Source: a virus (taxonomy: Duplodnaviria > Heunggongvirae > Uroviricota > Caudoviricetes). Taken from it: a DNA stretch of 9,345 nucleotides. The stretch lies in the IMG/VR virus record IMGVR_UViG_2545824708_000014. One strand, written 5' to 3'. Position 1 is the first letter of the stretch. Each line of letters opens with the position of its first letter. Under the pieces are notes generated by a model. It searched no databases. It was given only the letters and a program-made list of their open reading frames with translations, and had not been told where the DNA came from. Shown in pieces: positions 2,341 to 8,810 of this stretch. Made by a program: the position numbers and the translations under genes.

Positions 2341-3546
2341 TTACGCCGCTGCAATCTTCAGCAGTTTGATGGCCTGCGAATCGACCAGCATCCCGCCGGT
2401 GCGCTTGGTGGTATAAAAACCGACAAACGGTTTATTGGTGTACGGGTCACGCAGAATGCGGGTGCCGATACGGTCAACGATGGTGTAACCCCGTTTGAAG
2501 TTACCAAATGCAATGGCTTTCGCATCAGCGGCGATATCCGGCATCTGTTCGTTTTCAGCGATACCGTAACCCGCCAGAGAGGACGGCTGCCCCAGTTCCA
2601 GCCCCGGACGCCACAGATAGTTACCCTCGGTGTCTTTCAGCAGACGGATGGCAAACAGGCTGTTGTTGTTCATCATGAACTTCGCGCCGGTGCGGTGTGC
2701 CTTACGCAGCGTGTAAATCAGTTTGATAATGGCGTCTGCGGTCACCGCCGTCGCTTCGCCGGATACAATATGCTGAAGTTTGCCGAACGCCCGGACCTTA
2801 TCGGTTTCATCCGTGGATTCATACGCCAGGAACCCTTTCGGCTTCTTGGTACCATCGCCGGTGGTAAAGGCAATTTCTTCCTGTTCGGCAAATTCGGTTG
2901 CCAGCTCGCTGTTGATCCAGGCCTCCACGTTGAAAAAGGCATCATCCAGCATTTTCTGGGTGGCCTGCGGGTTACCGTAGATTTCCCCCATGAAAGGTTC
3001 AATCAGTCCCAGTCTGGAGGTGGCAGTCTGGGAGCGCGCGTCAGTCTCGCCAACCCATCCGGAAGCCGTGCCGCCCAGATTCACCAGTTTTTTGTAGTCG
3101 GAACCGCCAACGGTGATCACCGCGGCTTCCTGGCGCATCACCACTTCATCTTTCAGCAGGGTCAGAATGTTGCGATCCAGCGCTTCCGGCACGGCATAGC
3201 CACCGTCTTCATCGGTGCCCACCTGTAATGCCTTGCGCTCCAGATCACGCAGACCATCTTCACGGCCTTTACGCAGGAAGCCCACAAACGCTTCTTTATG
3301 CTCGGTGGCCAGTTGATTCTGCGCACCACCTGCCGGACGTTTCAGCTCAATCAGCTCTTTTTCAAGGTCGCTTTTGAGATTTTCCAGCTCGCTGAGTTTC
3401 CCGTTCAGGGTTTCCACCTGCCCGGCAAGTTTGCCTTTTTCCTGCTCAATCGCATCCACGCGCTTGTCGTTCTTTGCCTTGAAGTCGTCAAACTTCTGCT
3501 GCAGCTCCTGCGCGACCTGTTCGACATCTTTAATATCAACCGCCAT
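2341..3546 (-). CDS. HK97-family major capsid protein with N-terminal coiled-coil delta (scaffolding) domain
   Basis: 401 aa. The N-terminal ~100 residues are heptad-like and charged (delta domain); the C-terminal region is HK97-fold-like (...GYGIAENEQMPD...FVGFYTTKRTGGMLVD...). RBS AGGAGA lies 6 nt before the ATG. It follows the prohead protease directly. Confidence 0.9.
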   Translation of the reverse strand: MAVDIKDVEQVAQELQQKFDDFKAKNDKRVDAIEQEKGKLAGQVETLNGKLSELENLKSDLEKELIELKRPAGGAQNQLATEHKEAFVGFLRKGREDGLRDLERKALQVGTDEDGGYAVPEALDRNILTLLKDEVVMRQEAAVITVGGSDYKKLVNLGGTASGWVGETDARSQTATSRLGLIEPFMGEIYGNPQATQKMLDDAFFNVEAWINSELATEFAEQEEIAFTTGDGTKKPKGFLAYESTDETDKVRAFGKLQHIVSGEATAVTADAIIKLIYTLRKAHRTGAKFMMNNNSLFAIRLLKDTEGNYLWRPGLELGQPSSLAGYGIAENEQMPDIAADAKAIAFGNFKRGYTIVDRIGTRILRDPYTNKPFVGFYTTKRTGGMLVDSQAIKLLKIAAA

Positions 3547-3560
3547 CGTATTTCTCCTGA

Positions 3561-4211
3561 TTAGAAGTTCAGATTTTTCAGTGCATTCAGTGCAGAGCCC
3601 ACATCCTCAGCGTCGCGCAGGGACAGTGCGCCATAGCCCCCGGCCATGAATGCTTTGGCCTGGGTACGGGAGAGTCCGACATCACGCAGGACTCTTTCGA
3701 TTTTTTTCTGTTCAGGGATTTCCCCGCGGGCCAGCGCGTTCTTGACGTCGCTGATCCGCGCCTCGTCGTTAGACGGAAACGTCACCAGACTGACTTCCCA
3801 GAGGTCGATTTCTTTCAGCAAAAAGGCTTCTTTCGTCCGGTCGTATTCCCAGTCTTTCAGGACGTACCCAATAGAAAGGCCGGTTAACGAACCGGCCTTC
3901 ATGTGTGCATGTGCGCGTTTTGCCAGGGGATCATCATCAATGAGCAACCGCCCCCTGACGTAAAGCCCGACATCGTCTTCCTTCATTTCGGTGTAAACTC
4001 CGATGGGCTCATCCATGCGGTGCTGCCAGAGCAGCGCAGGTAACGCTTTTCTGTCACTCCACGCCCGCAGGGAAGCAGCAAATGCCCCGGACATCACCAC
4101 ATCATCGTGGCTGTCCTTTACACCAAAGACGGAGCCATACCCTTCAAACTCACCGGAGTCACTGACAGATTTCAGACTCAGCGGTACATCAAGACGTTGT
4201 TTCGTCTGCAT
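3561..4211 (-). CDS. HK97-family prohead maturation protease
   Basis: Motif EFEGYGSVFGVKDSHDDVV matches the conserved N-terminal signature of HK97-type prohead proteases. I chose ATG 4211 because AAGGA sits 8 nt upstream; the longer ORF from 4247 has a CCTCC context and no SD. It overlaps the portal 3' end, as is typical. Confidence 0.85.
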   Translation of the reverse strand: MQTKQRLDVPLSLKSVSDSGEFEGYGSVFGVKDSHDDVVMSGAFAASLRAWSDRKALPALLWQHRMDEPIGVYTEMKEDDVGLYVRGRLLIDDDPLAKRAHAHMKAGSLTGLSIGYVLKDWEYDRTKEAFLLKEIDLWEVSLVTFPSNDEARISDVKNALARGEIPEQKKIERVLRDVGLSRTQAKAFMAGGYGALSLRDAEDVGSALNALKNLNF

Positions 4212-5430
4212 TGGCGTTATCCTTCTGCTTACCGGCTTTACTGCCATCGGAGGGGTTCGTGGTCATGTTCATCGGTGTGAGATAGACATCACCACCGGGA
4301 CGCGGATTCATATCTTCGAGGTCGCGGCAGTCATTGGGAGAGTAAATTCCCCAGTTGATCCCGGTAGCGTAGGCTTCAAAACGGGACTTCATATCCCCGC
4401 GCAGTAAGGCCCCGGCGTTAAATTTGGCGTAATAAACGCCCTGCTTACTTTTTCGTACCAGTCCGGTGTTGATCCGCTGCTCAATGCGGGTCAGATACGG
4501 CACCAGTGAATAGTTGATAAATCCCAGCCCCAGCTCTTCGATATTGTTGAAGGTGGCGCGATCGGTGTTCTGCACCATGTGCAATGGCACCCGGAACAGA
4601 CGACAGATTTCTTCAAGCTGAAACTTGCGGGTTTCCAGGAACTGGCTGTCCTCGGCGTTCAGCGCCATCGACTTCCAGTCCAGCCCCATCTCAAGGATCA
4701 TCGGGCGGTGAGCATTGCCAAGCCCGGTGTGACGCTCCTCAAAATCTTTCTTCAGGCGCTCGTAAGCCTGATCTGACAGCGTCTGCTCTGTACGCAACAC
4801 ACCCGACGTCACCGCACCATTGCTGAACAGTCTGGCCCCGTGCTCTTCGGTCGCTGCCGCCAGCGATATTGCCTCGCGGGCATAGGCGATGGGATTCAGC
4901 CCCACCAGTCCGTCCAGCGTCAGCGTGCGCACATGCCAGATATCTTCCTGGCTCAGCACATCCGTGGAGCCGTCCGGGAATGTGACCTGATAGACCGGCT
5001 CCCAGCTACTGTTAAGCTTCGGTACCACACAGCCGGGATCGACGGGCAGCAGTTCAGCCACTTCGCCAAATGCTTTCACTTTGTAGGCGTAAAAGTTTCC
5101 CCGCAGGCACAGACAGGTGACCACCAGCTCCCAAAACTCCTGCGGCGTCATATAGCCATTGGGATGCGTGGAAATCAGCTTATGCAGACGTTCGCCGGTG
5201 GCTCTCTGTTTCAGGTTGCCGTTCAGGTGATACAGGTTGCAGGGCAACATCCCGACCGACTCTGCCAGCACCCTGACGCAGGAAAAAACCGCCGTCAGTC
5301 GCATGGCCCGCTGACTGCTGATCTGCTTTCCGGTATAGGTGTCGTAGGACAGCCCGATAGCGTCCGCCAGCTCTGCTGGCGTGGTCACCGGTGCGTCACT
5401 TTTCCGTTGAAATAATCCCGAAAAGAACAC
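4189..5430 (-). CDS. Phage portal protein, HK97 family
   Basis: 413 aa, in the canonical position between large terminase and protease. GTG start at 5428..5430 with GGAGG 6 nt upstream; it overlaps the stop of the preceding small ORF (TAGTG). Confidence 0.85.
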   Translation of the reverse strand: MFFSGLFQRKSDAPVTTPAELADAIGLSYDTYTGKQISSQRAMRLTAVFSCVRVLAESVGMLPCNLYHLNGNLKQRATGERLHKLISTHPNGYMTPQEFWELVVTCLCLRGNFYAYKVKAFGEVAELLPVDPGCVVPKLNSSWEPVYQVTFPDGSTDVLSQEDIWHVRTLTLDGLVGLNPIAYAREAISLAAATEEHGARLFSNGAVTSGVLRTEQTLSDQAYERLKKDFEERHTGLGNAHRPMILEMGLDWKSMALNAEDSQFLETRKFQLEEICRLFRVPLHMVQNTDRATFNNIEELGLGFINYSLVPYLTRIEQRINTGLVRKSKQGVYYAKFNAGALLRGDMKSRFEAYATGINWGIYSPNDCRDLEDMNPRPGGDVYLTPMNMTTNPSDGSKAGKQKDNANADETTS

Positions 5431-5623: not shown

Positions 5624-7357
5624 TTAAAGCGAGCGGATCCCATAGGACTCAATGTGGTCAGACAGCGTGTCTTCTTTCTCGTACAGCATGGCTCTGCCAA
5701 CCGCCATAATCAGCGCAACTGCACCGTCAATTTTGTTTTCCGCCTGCTCTTTGACGGGCTTCACCACATCATCGTTACCCGGCATGTTTTTGCCGACCAC
5801 GTTGCCGATACACCAGGTCATGATGGGATTGCCGTCATGATGAAAACGTCCCGATTCAATCGCTGCTTCCAGCTCTTTCATCGGATCGGACATATTGGTG
5901 AAGTTCTGGACGATAGTGACGGGATTCAGGTCTTCATCAGCAAGGTCATGTGACAGCCCGGTCGCCCCGAAGGGGTCGATGGGTGACTCGCTGACCGGGC
6001 TGATTTTGTTCGCCGCTTTGGCCTCTTCGAGGATGTAGCGATAATCCACCTCTGCACCATCGGTAACGGTCAGGACGCCCATTTCCACCCATTTCTGAAA
6101 GCGTTCGGCTGTCCGGCGATCTTCATTTTTCTCGACGCTGTACACCGTGTCATACGGTACCCAGAAACGCGGGGCCACACTGTAGTAATGCGTTTTACCG
6201 TCAATCTCGCGGGTATAAAGTCGCGCCATGCTGTTCATATCCAGTTTACGCGCCAGGTCAAAGGCCAGAATGCACGGCTGCCCCTCGAATTGCTCAAGAG
6301 TCAGTGATTTATCCTCGCAGCTCTGCCAGCTCACCAGGTTGAAATACGCCGAACGCGCCGACACCCAGATATTGAGGTGTTTTGTTTTAAAGACGTTTGC
6401 TAGACGGGCGTTATTTTTCGCACGCTGTTGCTGACTTAACAAAAACTCACGGTAAACCGACACCCCGATATTCGGGTTGGCTTTTTCCAGCACCTGTGGG
6501 TTGGTCCAGTCGTCACCTTCGTCAACGGTATAGATGATCCCGAACAGTTCATCGTTGGGTACCGAACCGTTGAGCATCTCGATAACTTCCCGCCGTTTGT
6601 CGTAGCACGGCCCCTCAATGTTGTCCCCGGCAGTAGTAATGGCCCACATCAGTGGCTGACGTCGCGCCCCCATCCCGGTAAGCATCGTGGTGTAAAGCGC
6701 ATCGGTGGCGTGCTCGTGATATTCATCCACCACCGCATAGTGGGGTGATGATCCATCACCGGGGTTACCGATCAGCGGTTCAAACCGCGCGCCATCCTCC
6801 GGACGGTTCATGTTTGAGGCGTTAACCTCAATCCCGAACGCTTCCGTCAGCATGGGTGTGCGTTTACACATCAGTCGTGCCGGACGAAAGACTTCCCATG
6901 CCTGTTTCTCCGTCGTGGCACCGGAATACACTTCCGCGCCGAACTCGTTATCACAGGCAAAACAATACAGGGCAACACCGGCAGAGATTGCCGATTTGCC
7001 GTTCTTACGGGGGATTTCGGTATACACCTCCCGGAAGCGGCGCAGCCGGGAGCCTTTATTGACCCAGCCAAACGCGCAGCAGATCACAAAGAGCTGCCAC
7101 GGCTCCAGCGTGATGGGCATCCGTTTGAATGCCCACTCACCCTTGGTGTGCGGCAACAGCTGAATAAATTTCGCGGCCCGTTCAGCCTGGTCCTTGTCGA
7201 AGCGGTAACGAAACGACTTACTTTTTTCCGCCATCAGGTCATCAAGATGGCGCTGGCAGGCCTGAATCACAAACTGGCAGGCCACAATCTTTCCGCGCAC
7301 GACATCACGGGCATACTGATTGGCAGCATTTACGTTGGGGTAAGATTTCCGGCTCAT
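5624..7357 (-). CDS. Phage terminase large subunit (Terminase_1-type ATPase/nuclease)
   Basis: 577 aa. Walker A-like PRKNGKS near the N-terminal third. ATG overlaps the small terminase stop (ATGA at 7354..7357). Length and position are typical for TerL. Confidence 0.9.
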
Positions 7358-7848
7358 GATTCGATGATTTTCAGAAACGGGTTAGTGGCTTTCTTCTGCC
7401 CCGCCAGGCCAATCAGACGCTGGCGGCTGCTGGGGTCGAGTCCGAGCATTGCCCCCGTGCTGCTCATCTCGGACTCCTGTTCTTTCTTGGCGGTCAGCTC
7501 CGGATTTTTGACCATGCCACCCATTGCACCGGTGATGGTGTTGCCCTGTCTGGCAATATTTTTCACGGCACGTCGCCAGAACTCATAGGCCACGCACCAC
7601 CGCTCAAGTACCGCCAGGTCAGTCACGCACAGCAGGCCCTGACCGCAGAGTTCTTTGGTTGTCAGTTGCCACATGATCGTGGCGAGAGGGAGATCTTCTT
7701 CAGCGAACCACTCCGGTGGCTCAACACCTTTGATGGGCGTAAAAACAGGTTCATCTTTATTCAGGGCTCGCTTGCCGGGGTTTCCGGCCAGCGCCTTGCG
7801 CGCCGTTGGCTTGGGGCGACGCCCGGAACGCCCCGCCGTTCCAGCCAT
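7354..7848 (-). CDS. Phage terminase small subunit, P27 family
   Basis: The N-terminal motif ...[11 protein letters not shown]... is characteristic of P27-family TerS. I chose ATG 7846..7848 (AGGAG 8 nt upstream). The track's longer ORF begins at a GTG at 7857 that abuts the SD. Confidence 0.8.
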
Positions 7849-7898
7849 ATGCGGCACTCCTGGTTAAATTTCATTTTTCGCGGGTATAAAAAAACGAT

Positions 7899-7947
7899 GG
7901 GGCGGGCAGTCCGGAAGACGTCAGGCCGCAGGGATTTGACCCGCCCC
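7899..7947 (-). promoter_or_regulatory. GC-rich dyad GGGGCGGG-N33-CCCGCCCC in the HNH-TerS intergenic region; candidate cos-site region and/or terminator-like structure
   Basis: 8-bp perfect inverted repeat at 7899..7906 and 7940..7947, read directly. On the phage-sense strand it is followed after 4 nt by T7. It lies between the HNH endonuclease and terminase genes, where cos sites sit in HK97-like phages. Confidence 0.35.
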
Positions 7948-7973
7948 TCCCCTCAGGCAGTTGAGAATTATTA

Positions 7974-8324
7974 TCACTTCAACCGTTCACGGGCCGTCTT
8001 CGCCTTATGACACGGCCAGCACAGACTCTGCAGATTACAGTCGGCATCAGTGCCGCCATGCGCTTTAGGGATGATGTGGTCAACGGTTTTCGCCTCGCGC
8101 ACCACACCAGCACGCAGGCACAACTGGCACAGGCCTTTGTCACGCTTGAGCACACGTTCACGGATAACATCCCATTTCGAACCATAACCGCGCTGGTGTC
8201 GGGACTGGCCTGGCTTGTATTGCTTCCAGCCTTCGCTTTTGTGGCTTTCGCAATAGCCTGACGAGTCAGTGGTGGTATGGCGGCAGCCGCGAACGCGGCA
8301 GGCTTTTGGGGTTCGTGGGGGCAT
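7974..8324 (-). CDS. Phage-associated HNH endonuclease
   Basis: HNH motif ...VDHIIPKAHGGTDADCNLQSLCWPCHKAKT... plus an N-terminal Cys cluster CRVRGCRH...YCESH. I chose ATG 8324 because AAGAGGA sits 8 nt upstream; the track ORF extends 21 codons further to 8387 with no RBS. Confidence 0.85.
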   Translation of the reverse strand: MPPRTPKACRVRGCRHTTTDSSGYCESHKSEGWKQYKPGQSRHQRGYGSKWDVIRERVLKRDKGLCQLCLRAGVVREAKTVDHIIPKAHGGTDADCNLQSLCWPCHKAKTARERLK

Positions 8325-8474
8325 TGCATAATCCTCTTGGATGGTTCGCGTACGATACGTGGCACCCTTCTCAGAATCGAATCGCACTCCATTCCGGTTT
8401 TGCCATAAACGATCTTTTATGCTTCGCTGGATGTAGTTGATAGTTGTTGAAACTCAATGAACAGGAGTTCACAA

Positions 8475-8810
8475 ATGAATAGTTATGAATGGGCATGGCT
8501 TTTGAACAAAGATGACACCCTATACTTTTTCCCCGTAGGCCATTCTGTAGAAGGTAATTACAAAATTCACTTTGAGTTGAGCGGTAGTTGTAACCTTAGA
8601 GTCTCAGATGCTGAATTGCATGGTAAACCTGTACTGCTGTTCGAATACTTCGATGAAGATGATGACCGCCCTGCAATAATCGAAATATTAGAAACAACCA
8701 CTACAACTGTGGAGGCGATGATCGCACATCTGAATAGTATCGATAGTATTTACCATGAACCGATTTACAAAGCTGTTTACGAGTGGGCTGTAAAGTTTTT
8801 CTATCGATGA
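8475..8810 (+). CDS. Hypothetical acidic protein (111 aa) in an AT-rich islet; no family recognised
   Basis: Open frame with AGGAG 7 nt before ATG 8475; the track's upstream ATG at 8457 lacks an SD. Contains an acidic run EYFDEDDDRPAIIEILETTTTT. Base composition is clearly AT-richer than the phage block. Confidence 0.55.
   Translation: MNSYEWAWLLNKDDTLYFFPVGHSVEGNYKIHFELSGSCNLRVSDAELHGKPVLLFEYFDEDDDRPAIIEILETTTTTVEAMIAHLNSIDSIYHEPIYKAVYEWAVKFFYR

Follow-up and report, generated by a model that had tools for sequence, protein, structure and literature searches.

Does the short gap between an HNH endonuclease gene and a small terminase gene mark the place where a phage genome is cut for packaging, and if so, where do the cuts fall? 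The gap in question is 125 bp long and occupies positions 7849-7973 of a 9,345-nucleotide stretch of Caudoviricetes DNA (IMG/VR record IMGVR_UViG_2545824708_000014; the whole of this stretch is called the window below). An earlier note, written by a model from the letters alone, had flagged it as a candidate cohesive-end (cos) region of an HNH-assisted packaging module on account of a GC dyad followed by a T-tract, and had named a transcription terminator as the alternative. We put at about 90% the probability that 7849-7973 is the cos site of a lambdoid prophage of the SfV/SfI/SfII type, located at the e14/icd locus of Escherichia coli and deprived of its tail genes by IS3. The site is not new, having been mapped in SfI; its sequence is common to SfII, SfIV and SfV.

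Mapped ends of related phages

The evidence for this reading comes from phages whose virion ends have been mapped. By megablast against phage records, the region matched Shigella flexneri serotype-converting phages and their relatives, and its 91-nt core (7862-7952) is identical to SfII at 91/91 positions, to SfIV at 89/91, to SfV at 88/91 and to SfI at 87/91 when record ends are joined, with all but one of the differences from SfI, SfV and SfIV falling within a spacer. In run-off reads from primers in the HNH and terS genes, SfI virion DNA lacked 10 nt, 5'-TGCCCGCCCC-3', relative to the prophage; the authors of that study concluded that SfI uses cos packaging, and described its cos as resembling that of SfV with one base different (PMC3636060). 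The SfIV cos has in turn been equated with those of SfI, SfII and SfV by sequence analysis (PMC3851460). The 10 nt missing from SfI virion DNA are positions 7908-7899 of the window, and thus span the right arm of the dyad. They point to nicks at 7909|7908 on the bottom strand and at 7899|7898 on the top strand. Since a gap in run-off reads, rather than an overlap, indicates recessed 5' ends, we infer that the cohesive end is a 3' overhang, by analogy with the 10-nt 3' ends of HK97 and phiE125.

The earlier note had asked for a comparison with mapped cos sites of the HK97 family, and this comparison bears its proposal out. The HK97 record ends with ...GGGGGGGGGATCAAATCTTCAAAACCTTTGCCCCAAATGAC CGCCGCCAAA and starts with GTTTGAATTTAACGCTAACCCGATTTTTTTAG..., which gives GAC CGCCGCCAAA | GTTTG at the junction, and HK97 is known to have 10-nt 3' overhangs (PMC9410871 Fig. 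1 legend; PMC11331095). Similarly, the record of Burkholderia phage phiE125 ends with ...GGGAC CGCCCGCTTC and starts with GTCGAATTTTCACGCCCGCGAAATT, the junction being GAC CGCCCGCTTC | GTCG. Phage phi644-2 has ten-base 3' extensions, 3'-GCGGGCGAAG-5' and 5'-CGCCCGCTTC-3', the same sequence as the phiE125 cos (PMC2920897). The 10-mers of SfI, HK97 and phiE125/phi644-2 occupy one column of a gap-free alignment, and each is preceded by GAC. This coincidence with the mapped virion ends of relatives places the gap among the HK97-type 3' cos sites.

One observation speaks against the exact cut positions: the GenBank records of SfV and SfIV break at 7916|7915, 7 nt to the left of the SfI-derived nick. 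It could be that the region is a cos site which is cut at these record boundaries (7916/7915) and not at 7909|7908 and 7899|7898. The records of SfV (U82619/NC_003444) and SfIV (NC_022749) both end in ...CCTGACGTCT and begin with TCCGGACTGCCCGCCCC, and the likeness to the SfV cos, one base apart, drawn in the SfI paper can be read in their favour. However, SfIV was linearised by analogy with SfV and not mapped, while the SfI mapping is explicit and coincides with the independent ends of HK97 and phiE125/phi644-2 at the homologous column; moreover, 7916|7915 lies in the non-conserved spacer. The cross-family alignment of sequences favours the SfI mapping over the record breaks, and we consider cutting at the latter very unlikely. 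The position of the SfV/SfIV break within this spacer would fit either a different mapping in 2002 or an arbitrary linearisation. A further record boundary near a site of this kind is found in Pseudomonas phage VW-6S (L182/L183), whose record carries a terminal duplication of ~64 bp and ends after the first 5 nt of the predicted cohesive 10-mer (…CTAGACCGTCC); this has the look of an artefact that arose when physical cos ends were assembled.

Layout of the gap

The phage genes of this region are all on the minus strand, and on that strand the gap reads TAATAATTCTCAACTGCCTGA GGGGAGGGGCGGG TCAAATC CCTGCGGCCTGACGTCTTCCG GAC TGCCCGCCCC ATCG TTTTTTT ATACCCGCGAAA AATGAAATTTAACC AGGAG TGCCGCAT ATG. 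Its parts are:

7940-7952, minus strand: G-rich block GGGGAGGGGCGGG, proposed cosQ-like upstream cos element
7947-7940, minus strand: left dyad arm GGGGCGGG, within the G-rich block
7933-7939, minus strand: TCAAATC motif, directly 3' of the G-block, starting 41 nt ahead of the end of the cohesive 10-mer
7912-7932, minus strand: spacer of variable sequence and fixed length (21 nt), with a GACGTC palindrome in the window's clade
7909-7911, minus strand: GAC, immediately 5' of the cohesive end
7899-7908, minus strand: cohesive-end 10-mer TGCCCGCCCC, the cosN equivalent, equal to the SfI run-off gap
7906-7899, minus strand: right dyad arm CCCGCCCC, within the cohesive 10-mer
7888-7894, minus strand: T7 tract, +5 to +11 from the top-strand nick
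7876-7887, minus strand: ATACCCGCGAAA, the most conserved block, +12 to +23, proposed binding core for a TerS of the Terminase_4 family
7862-7875, minus strand: A/T-rich block AATGAAATTTAACC
7857-7861, minus strand: Shine-Dalgarno sequence AGGAG of terS, 8 nt ahead of the ATG

Downstream of the cohesive end, a GC core is thus flanked by A/T tracts (T7 at +5 to +11, ACCCGCG at +14 to +20 and A5 at +21 to +25), and the A/T-rich stretch that had been noticed ahead of the TerS Shine-Dalgarno sequence is indeed present on the minus strand. A promoter consensus scan of 7300-8600 found no promoter, and an Rfam scan, run over the full window with E values up to 1, gave no match in the intergenic region. 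Sites for integration host factor (IHF) were looked for by eye only, and TCAAATCNCTG matches WATCAANNNNTTR poorly. The same Rfam scan returned a match to mir-200 within the terL coding sequence (5759-5833, minus strand), which at 25.9 bits against a gathering score of 86 bits (E 0.058) is due to chance.

Conservation across relatives

How much of this layout is kept at greater evolutionary distance was assessed on divergent relatives gathered by tblastn, by TerS alignment and by one genome scan, with TerS proteins 48-100% identical to that of the window and taxa comprising Enterobacterales, Xenorhabdus/Photorhabdus, Gilliamella, Pseudomonas, Burkholderia and Comamonas. (A scan of viral contigs with a single TerS protein recovered only near-identical loci and was uninformative on conservation.) The DNA upstream of terS was anchored on CCGCG[AT]AA, which gave 78 unique sequences, and weighted information content was calculated for each block. 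All 78 align without any gap. They present, at fixed spacing, a G-run with TCAAA, about 21 variable nt, GAC, a C-rich 10-mer, a T-tract, AYACCCGCGAAA and an A/T-rich stretch. Every one of these blocks is found in the window, which places it in the cos family of phages with a P27/Terminase_4 TerS, namely SfV, phiE125 and their relatives. The mean information of each block was as follows:

Upstream of the G-block: 0.05 bits
G-block: 1.21 bits
TCAAATC: 0.96 bits, kept as TCAAA(T/A)
21-nt spacer: 0.49 bits, with conserved length
GAC: 1.34 bits
10-mer: 0.99 bits
T-tract: 1.44 bits, kept in relatives that lack the dyad
AYACCCGCGAAA: 1.69 bits
A/T block: 1.17 bits
Shine-Dalgarno area: 0.36 bits

The sequence CCGCGAAA is almost invariant over Enterobacterales, Pseudomonas, Burkholderia, Comamonas and Moraxella. 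The distance from this conserved block to the nick is constant at 15 nt, while terS starts anywhere between 29 and 102 nt from the block, which indicates that the conserved DNA is tied to the cut site and not to terS translation. At the cut itself, AC stands just 5' of the bottom-strand nick in 76/81 unique relatives, and AC^YG is found in 72 of the 81. A literature search for these motifs or for a described consensus found none, most subscription journals being outside its reach.

Several clades depart from the common arrangement. In the Photorhabdus and Xenorhabdus loci (L117-L138) and in Caballeronia (L152), the cos block lies 63-102 nt from the terS start, compared with ~30-35 nt in the others, and the extra DNA is T-rich (…CACTGTTTTTGAGCACGGGAGG…). 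Phytopseudomonas and Pseudomonas sp. PA15 (L146-L148) carry a variant, GCAGAC CGCCCGAACG ACGGGGGGAGCC, ahead of the T-tract, with the GAC and C-rich element ~9 nt further upstream and an extra G-run inserted. In Vibrio phage H2 PGK-2017 (L095, 535-901), the HNH stop is 6 nt from the terS start, leaving no room for cos blocks; CCGCGAAA is found inside the end of the HNH coding sequence, at its usual distance from terS and without a G-block or T-tract, and cos is presumably elsewhere in this clade. Finally, a 5.6-kb contig labelled 'MAG: Bacillota bacterium' (JAEWTL010000102.1; L100) encodes a TerS 99% identical to the E. coli one next to an identical cos core, and probably represents enterobacterial prophage DNA that was mis-binned.

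The dyad and the terminator reading

The pattern that first drew attention to the gap, GGGGCGGG-N33-CCCGCCCC and then T7, stands where the earlier note had placed it, with a loop of exactly 33 nt, but the T-run does not follow the stem directly: four nucleotides, ATCG, separate it from the right arm. The dyad alone is not beyond chance. Perfect inverted repeats of at least 8 bp with a loop of 3-60 nt arose in 172 of 2000 dinucleotide shuffles of the 125 bp (8.6%), eight such repeats of at least 8 bp occur across the 9.3-kb window, and the RNA fold of the region compared with shuffles gave z = 0.06.

Nor is the pairing maintained in the 78 unique relatives. Only four of them keep 8/8 pairing; mean in-register complementarity is 4.4/8, no better than in registers shifted by -1, -3 or -4; and no compensatory change was found among them at any of the eight pairs. 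At the central position, 6 relatives pair C with G, 20 have C:C and 24 have G:G; the longest inverted repeat is only 5 nt in 48/78, and RNAalifold returned an empty consensus structure. Per-sequence fold z-scores averaged -0.79, with 9% below -2, a mean that is expected from segregated G-rich and C-rich blocks alone. The dyad is incidental, the product of a G-rich block and a C-rich cohesive end that lie 33 nt apart in this clade. It is not a conserved unit: the right arm is made by the cohesive end itself, the left by a separate G-rich block, and relatives have lost the pairing between them. A small dyad within the spacer was also considered and rejected as a family feature, with stems of 3-6 bp and scattered centres; some clades do have small spacer dyads, for example Burkholderia GAAGGC-GCT-GCCTTC.

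These data bear directly on the terminator alternative, in which the GC stem and T-run would form a Rho-independent terminator that ends HNH/early-right transcription ahead of the late head operon. The resemblance is real as far as it goes: a GC-rich inverted repeat precedes a T-run on the coding strand, the minimum-free-energy RNA fold pairs both 8-nt arms with the U7 run after them, and relatives fold slightly better than shuffles, G-rich blocks facing C-rich ones. However, the loop is 33 nt where ~3-10 nt would be usual, the U-run begins 4 nt past the stem, and a terminator consensus scan of 7300-8600 found nothing in the intergenic region, where folding is also no better than in shuffles. 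The stem is not maintained, as shown by the near absence of the 8-bp pairing, the lack of covariation and the empty consensus structure, whereas the T-tract is kept without it and is contiguous with the invariant ACCCGCGAAA block. In addition, late transcription in lambdoid phages has to pass through cos before it arrives at the head genes. Taken together, this makes a terminator extremely unlikely. By analogy with HK97, we propose that the T7 tract is part of a TerS recognition region and not a terminator tail.

Alternatively, the dyad, centred near 7923, could have a role at the DNA level: it might form a cruciform, or its arms might be two inverted half-sites to which a dimeric cos-binding protein attaches. 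In all family members G-rich runs do stand on opposite strands, on the top strand upstream and on the bottom strand in the cohesive end, ~41 bp or ~4 helical turns apart, and the arms are perfect in the SfV/SfII clade. On the other hand, the absence of compensatory change, the mismatched central pairs and the short repeats of most relatives speak against a DNA role; the nicks at 7909|7908 and 7899|7898 fall inside and at the edge of one arm, asymmetric to the dyad centre; and a repeat of this size is expected in 8.6% of shuffles. We regard such a role as improbable.

A model for cos cleavage

With the dyad set aside, the gap can be read as a cos site in which the conserved blocks have separate roles. 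Judging from homology and conservation, the terminase holoenzyme and the HNH protein would act together on concatemers and make two staggered nicks. The bottom-strand nick, between 7909 and 7908, would fall in the conserved context AC^YG (AC^TG on the top strand and CA|GT on the bottom strand in the window), and HNH is the likelier enzyme for it; the top-strand nick, between 7899 and 7898, would probably be made by TerL. The T-tract, ATACCCGCGAAA and the A/T block, together +5 to +37, form the likely binding site of the Terminase_4 TerS, a cosB-like element by analogy with HK97 TerS, and the G-run/TCAAATC block 41 bp upstream may be a cosQ-like element recognised by the TerL/HNH part. Likening this block to lambda cosQ draws on general knowledge of lambda and is by position: both would stand upstream of the nicks, at the end of the DNA being packaged.

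Several published observations underlie this scheme. Cleavage of HK97 cos requires gp74 together with terminase (PMC9410871; PMC11331095), and one nick each has been proposed for HNH and TerL, with the strands unassigned (PMC11331095; PMC12967558); how the two cooperate in generating nicks is still called unresolved in a 2026 paper on a Skunavirus HNH (PMC12967558). The HNH of phi105 nicks YG|GTY, and related cos-adjacent HNH enzymes nick CG|GT (Xu and Gupta, PMC3592412). The AC^YG context fits this CG|GT-type specificity of homologous nickases, which makes HNH the likelier enzyme at the bottom-strand nick. HK97 TerS, for its part, binds +15 to +29 past the cut (CTAACCCGATTTTTT), where it needs an A/T tract beside C:G pairs and recognises both the C:G pair at +21 and the shape of the neighbouring tract (PMC11331095). 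As the GC core with its A/T flanks is the most conserved DNA of the gap, it is the likeliest TerS site.

Besides the SfV and SfIV record breaks, a number of points weigh against this account. The prophage is defective, with two IS3 insertions and its tail genes replaced, and the mapped virion ends are those of relatives. The assignment of strands, HNH to the bottom and TerL to the top, is suggested by the nick context, and that context is AC^TG and not AC^CG in the window's clade; HK97 gp74 and other packaging HNH proteins look non-specific when alone. In phi105 the annotated end lies one nucleotide further right than AC^CG would place it, and phage D3 would show the same 1-nt offset if, as we presume, its overhang is of 9 nt. 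Lastly, binding of TerS to the ACCCGCGAAA block is likened to that of HK97 gp1 by analogy and not by homology.

Possible modularity of the cos core

The comparison with HK97 raises a further possibility, which we put forward tentatively: that the ~90-bp cos core is itself modular, its upstream half going with TerL and HNH, its downstream half with Terminase_4 TerS, and AC^YG being the nick site of HNH's own specificity. The upstream half would consist of the G-run/TCAAA at -41 and the AC^YG nick context, common to HK97 and D3 and altered in Bacillus phi105, and the downstream half of the T-tract and ACCCGCGAAA, which would travel with Terminase_4 small terminases. HK97 and Pseudomonas phage D3 do have the upstream half in common with the window (a G-run, TCAAA in the same register, GAC or GGACA, and a C-rich end), while the ATACCCGCGAAA block is absent downstream of both their ends. 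A common upstream half and a differing downstream half fit recognition of the former by homologous TerL/HNH and of the latter by the resident TerS family.

The small terminases themselves differ in sequence: window TerS against HK97 gp1 gave a BLASTP E of 7 and an hhalign probability of 0.2%, and gp1 has no Terminase_4 match. More broadly, BLASTP, phmmer, profile hmmsearch and hhalign found no homology of window TerS to HK97 gp1 or to a solved structure, and a single-sequence AlphaFold model of TerS had a pLDDT of 39. If the modular scheme is true, the bottom-strand nick is assigned to HNH and the top-strand nick to TerL, and the G-block is a cosQ-like element needed for cleavage or termination. 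The fixed-spacing consensus and the match between AC^YG and the HNH nickases, which we did not find described in the searchable literature, are modest new leads.

Neighbouring genes, prophage and host

The neighbours of the gap named by the earlier note are confirmed by Pfam. The genes that matter here are:

7976-7974, minus strand: TGA stop codon of the HNH gene
7974-8324, minus strand: HNH endonuclease gene, 116 aa (Pfam PF01844, E 5e-15)
7354-7848, minus strand: small terminase gene terS, P27/Terminase_4 family, 164 aa (Pfam PF05119, E 2e-21), with its ATG at 7848-7846
5624-7357, minus strand: large terminase gene (TerL), 577 aa (Pfam TerL_ATPase and TerL_nuclease)
4189-5430, minus strand: portal gene
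3561-4247, minus strand: prohead protease gene
2341-3546, minus strand: major capsid protein gene

According to the open reading frames, Pfam and the RefSeq annotation of an identical locus, the gap is thus an HNH/terS junction upstream of TerL, portal, protease and an HK97-fold capsid, which is the position of an HK97-type 3' cos. The HNH protein has an N-terminal zinc ribbon (CxxxxC...CxxH) and a C-terminal HNH domain. It is 97% identical to the SfI HNH, 41% identical over 46 aa to HK97 gp74 (E 4e-10) and 39% identical over 113 aa, zinc ribbon included, to the HNH nickase of Bacillus phi105 (E 2e-16). TerS is 99% identical to that of SfIV, and TerL is 26% identical to HK97 gp2 over 523 aa (E 1.5e-30). 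Homology of TerL and HNH to HK97 gp2 and gp74 also assigns this module to the HK97 type. Upstream of the HNH gene, on the opposite strand, a 117-aa open reading frame (8457-8810, plus strand) corresponds to hypothetical protein WP_001505012.1 in the identical chromosome.

The window is 100% identical to a segment of an E. coli chromosome (NZ_CP180607), where the prophage sits at the e14/icd locus with ymfL, ymfR, pinE and mcrA nearby. One IS3 replaces the tail module directly after the head-closure genes (NZ_CP180607; the IS3 pair of L013 is at 19877-21054 and 10199-11361), and a second separates the HNH gene from the lysis genes. Positions 134-574 of the window (plus strand), at its left end, encode a fragment of an IS3-family transposase.

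Such damage raises the possibility that the region, though inherited as a cos site, is inert: the prophage would be a decaying remnant with silent packaging genes, and no cutting would take place. The IS3 copies on both sides of the packaging/head module (window open reading frame 134-574 among them) and the missing tail genes are what such decay would leave. Against this, viable SfII has the very same cos core, the open reading frames for HNH, TerS, TerL, portal, protease and capsid are all full length, and a co-resident SfV-like phage could use the site in trans, the HNH-cos-terS segment being present in 1163/5426 complete E. coli genomes. We therefore treat inertness as a possibility to be taken seriously, though not the one that we would expect.

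Read as a cos site, the gap fixes the genome ends and the start of packaging for prophages in about one fifth of complete E. coli genomes, and for Shigella serotype-converting phages. The virion ends of such prophages become predictable, and their annotation feasible, from sequence alone. Since the cos of this defective prophage is intact, a related phage acting as helper could package its DNA in trans. Furthermore, the consensus and the nick context provide concrete mutations for studying how HNH and TerL divide the two cos nicks.

Comparison with known cos sites

Among known systems, the cos of phage lambda (cosQ-cosN-cosB) is alike in layout, with an upstream element, staggered nicks and a binding region for the small terminase ahead of its gene. 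The overhangs of lambda are 5' ones of 12 nt; its terminase works without an HNH partner, and its cosB contains R-sites and an IHF site. The sequences are unrelated, and the 10-nt gap of the window, the 10-nt 3' extensions of its relatives and the presence of an HNH partner set the window apart from the lambda type.

In Bacillus phage phi105, the HNH is alike along the full length of the protein (39% identity), GAC^CG stands at the left edge of the cohesive end, and a homopolymer-rich run with TTAAATCCCT lies ~20 nt upstream of GAC^CG. This phage differs in that its annotated 3' end, GCGCTCC, has 7 nt and is displaced rightwards from AC^CG by 1 nt, its upstream run is C-rich where that of the window is G-rich, and its TerS is barely similar (E 0.35).

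The HK97 cos likewise lies between an HNH gene (gp74) and terS and has a 10-nt 3' overhang after GAC. It also has a G-run followed by TCAAATC, with TCAAATC exactly 41 nt from the record end, and its TerL and HNH are homologous to those of the window. On the other hand, its TerS (gp1) is without detectable homology to window TerS and is not of the Terminase_4 family, and the site that it binds is CTAACCCGATTTTTT at +15 to +29, compared with T7-ATACCCGCGAAAAA at +5 to +25 in the window.

The Burkholderia phages phiE125, phi1026b and phi644-2 match the window on both sides of the cut. They have a Terminase_4 TerS (~50% identical), an HNH gene upstream, the same order and spacing of blocks, and the 10-base 3' extension CGCCCGCTTC at the homologous column. 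They differ in the 10-mer itself (CGCCCGCTTC versus TGCCCGCCCC in the window), in a nick context of AC^CG instead of AC^TG, and in the spacer.

Closest of all are the cos sites of SfI, SfII, SfIV and SfV. They are flanked by the same HNH, P27-family TerS and TerL genes, match the window at 87-91 of the 91 core positions, and include the 10-nt end TGCCCGCCCC mapped in SfI. The site itself is no different in these phages; what distinguishes the window is the element around it, an E. coli prophage at the e14 locus truncated by IS3.

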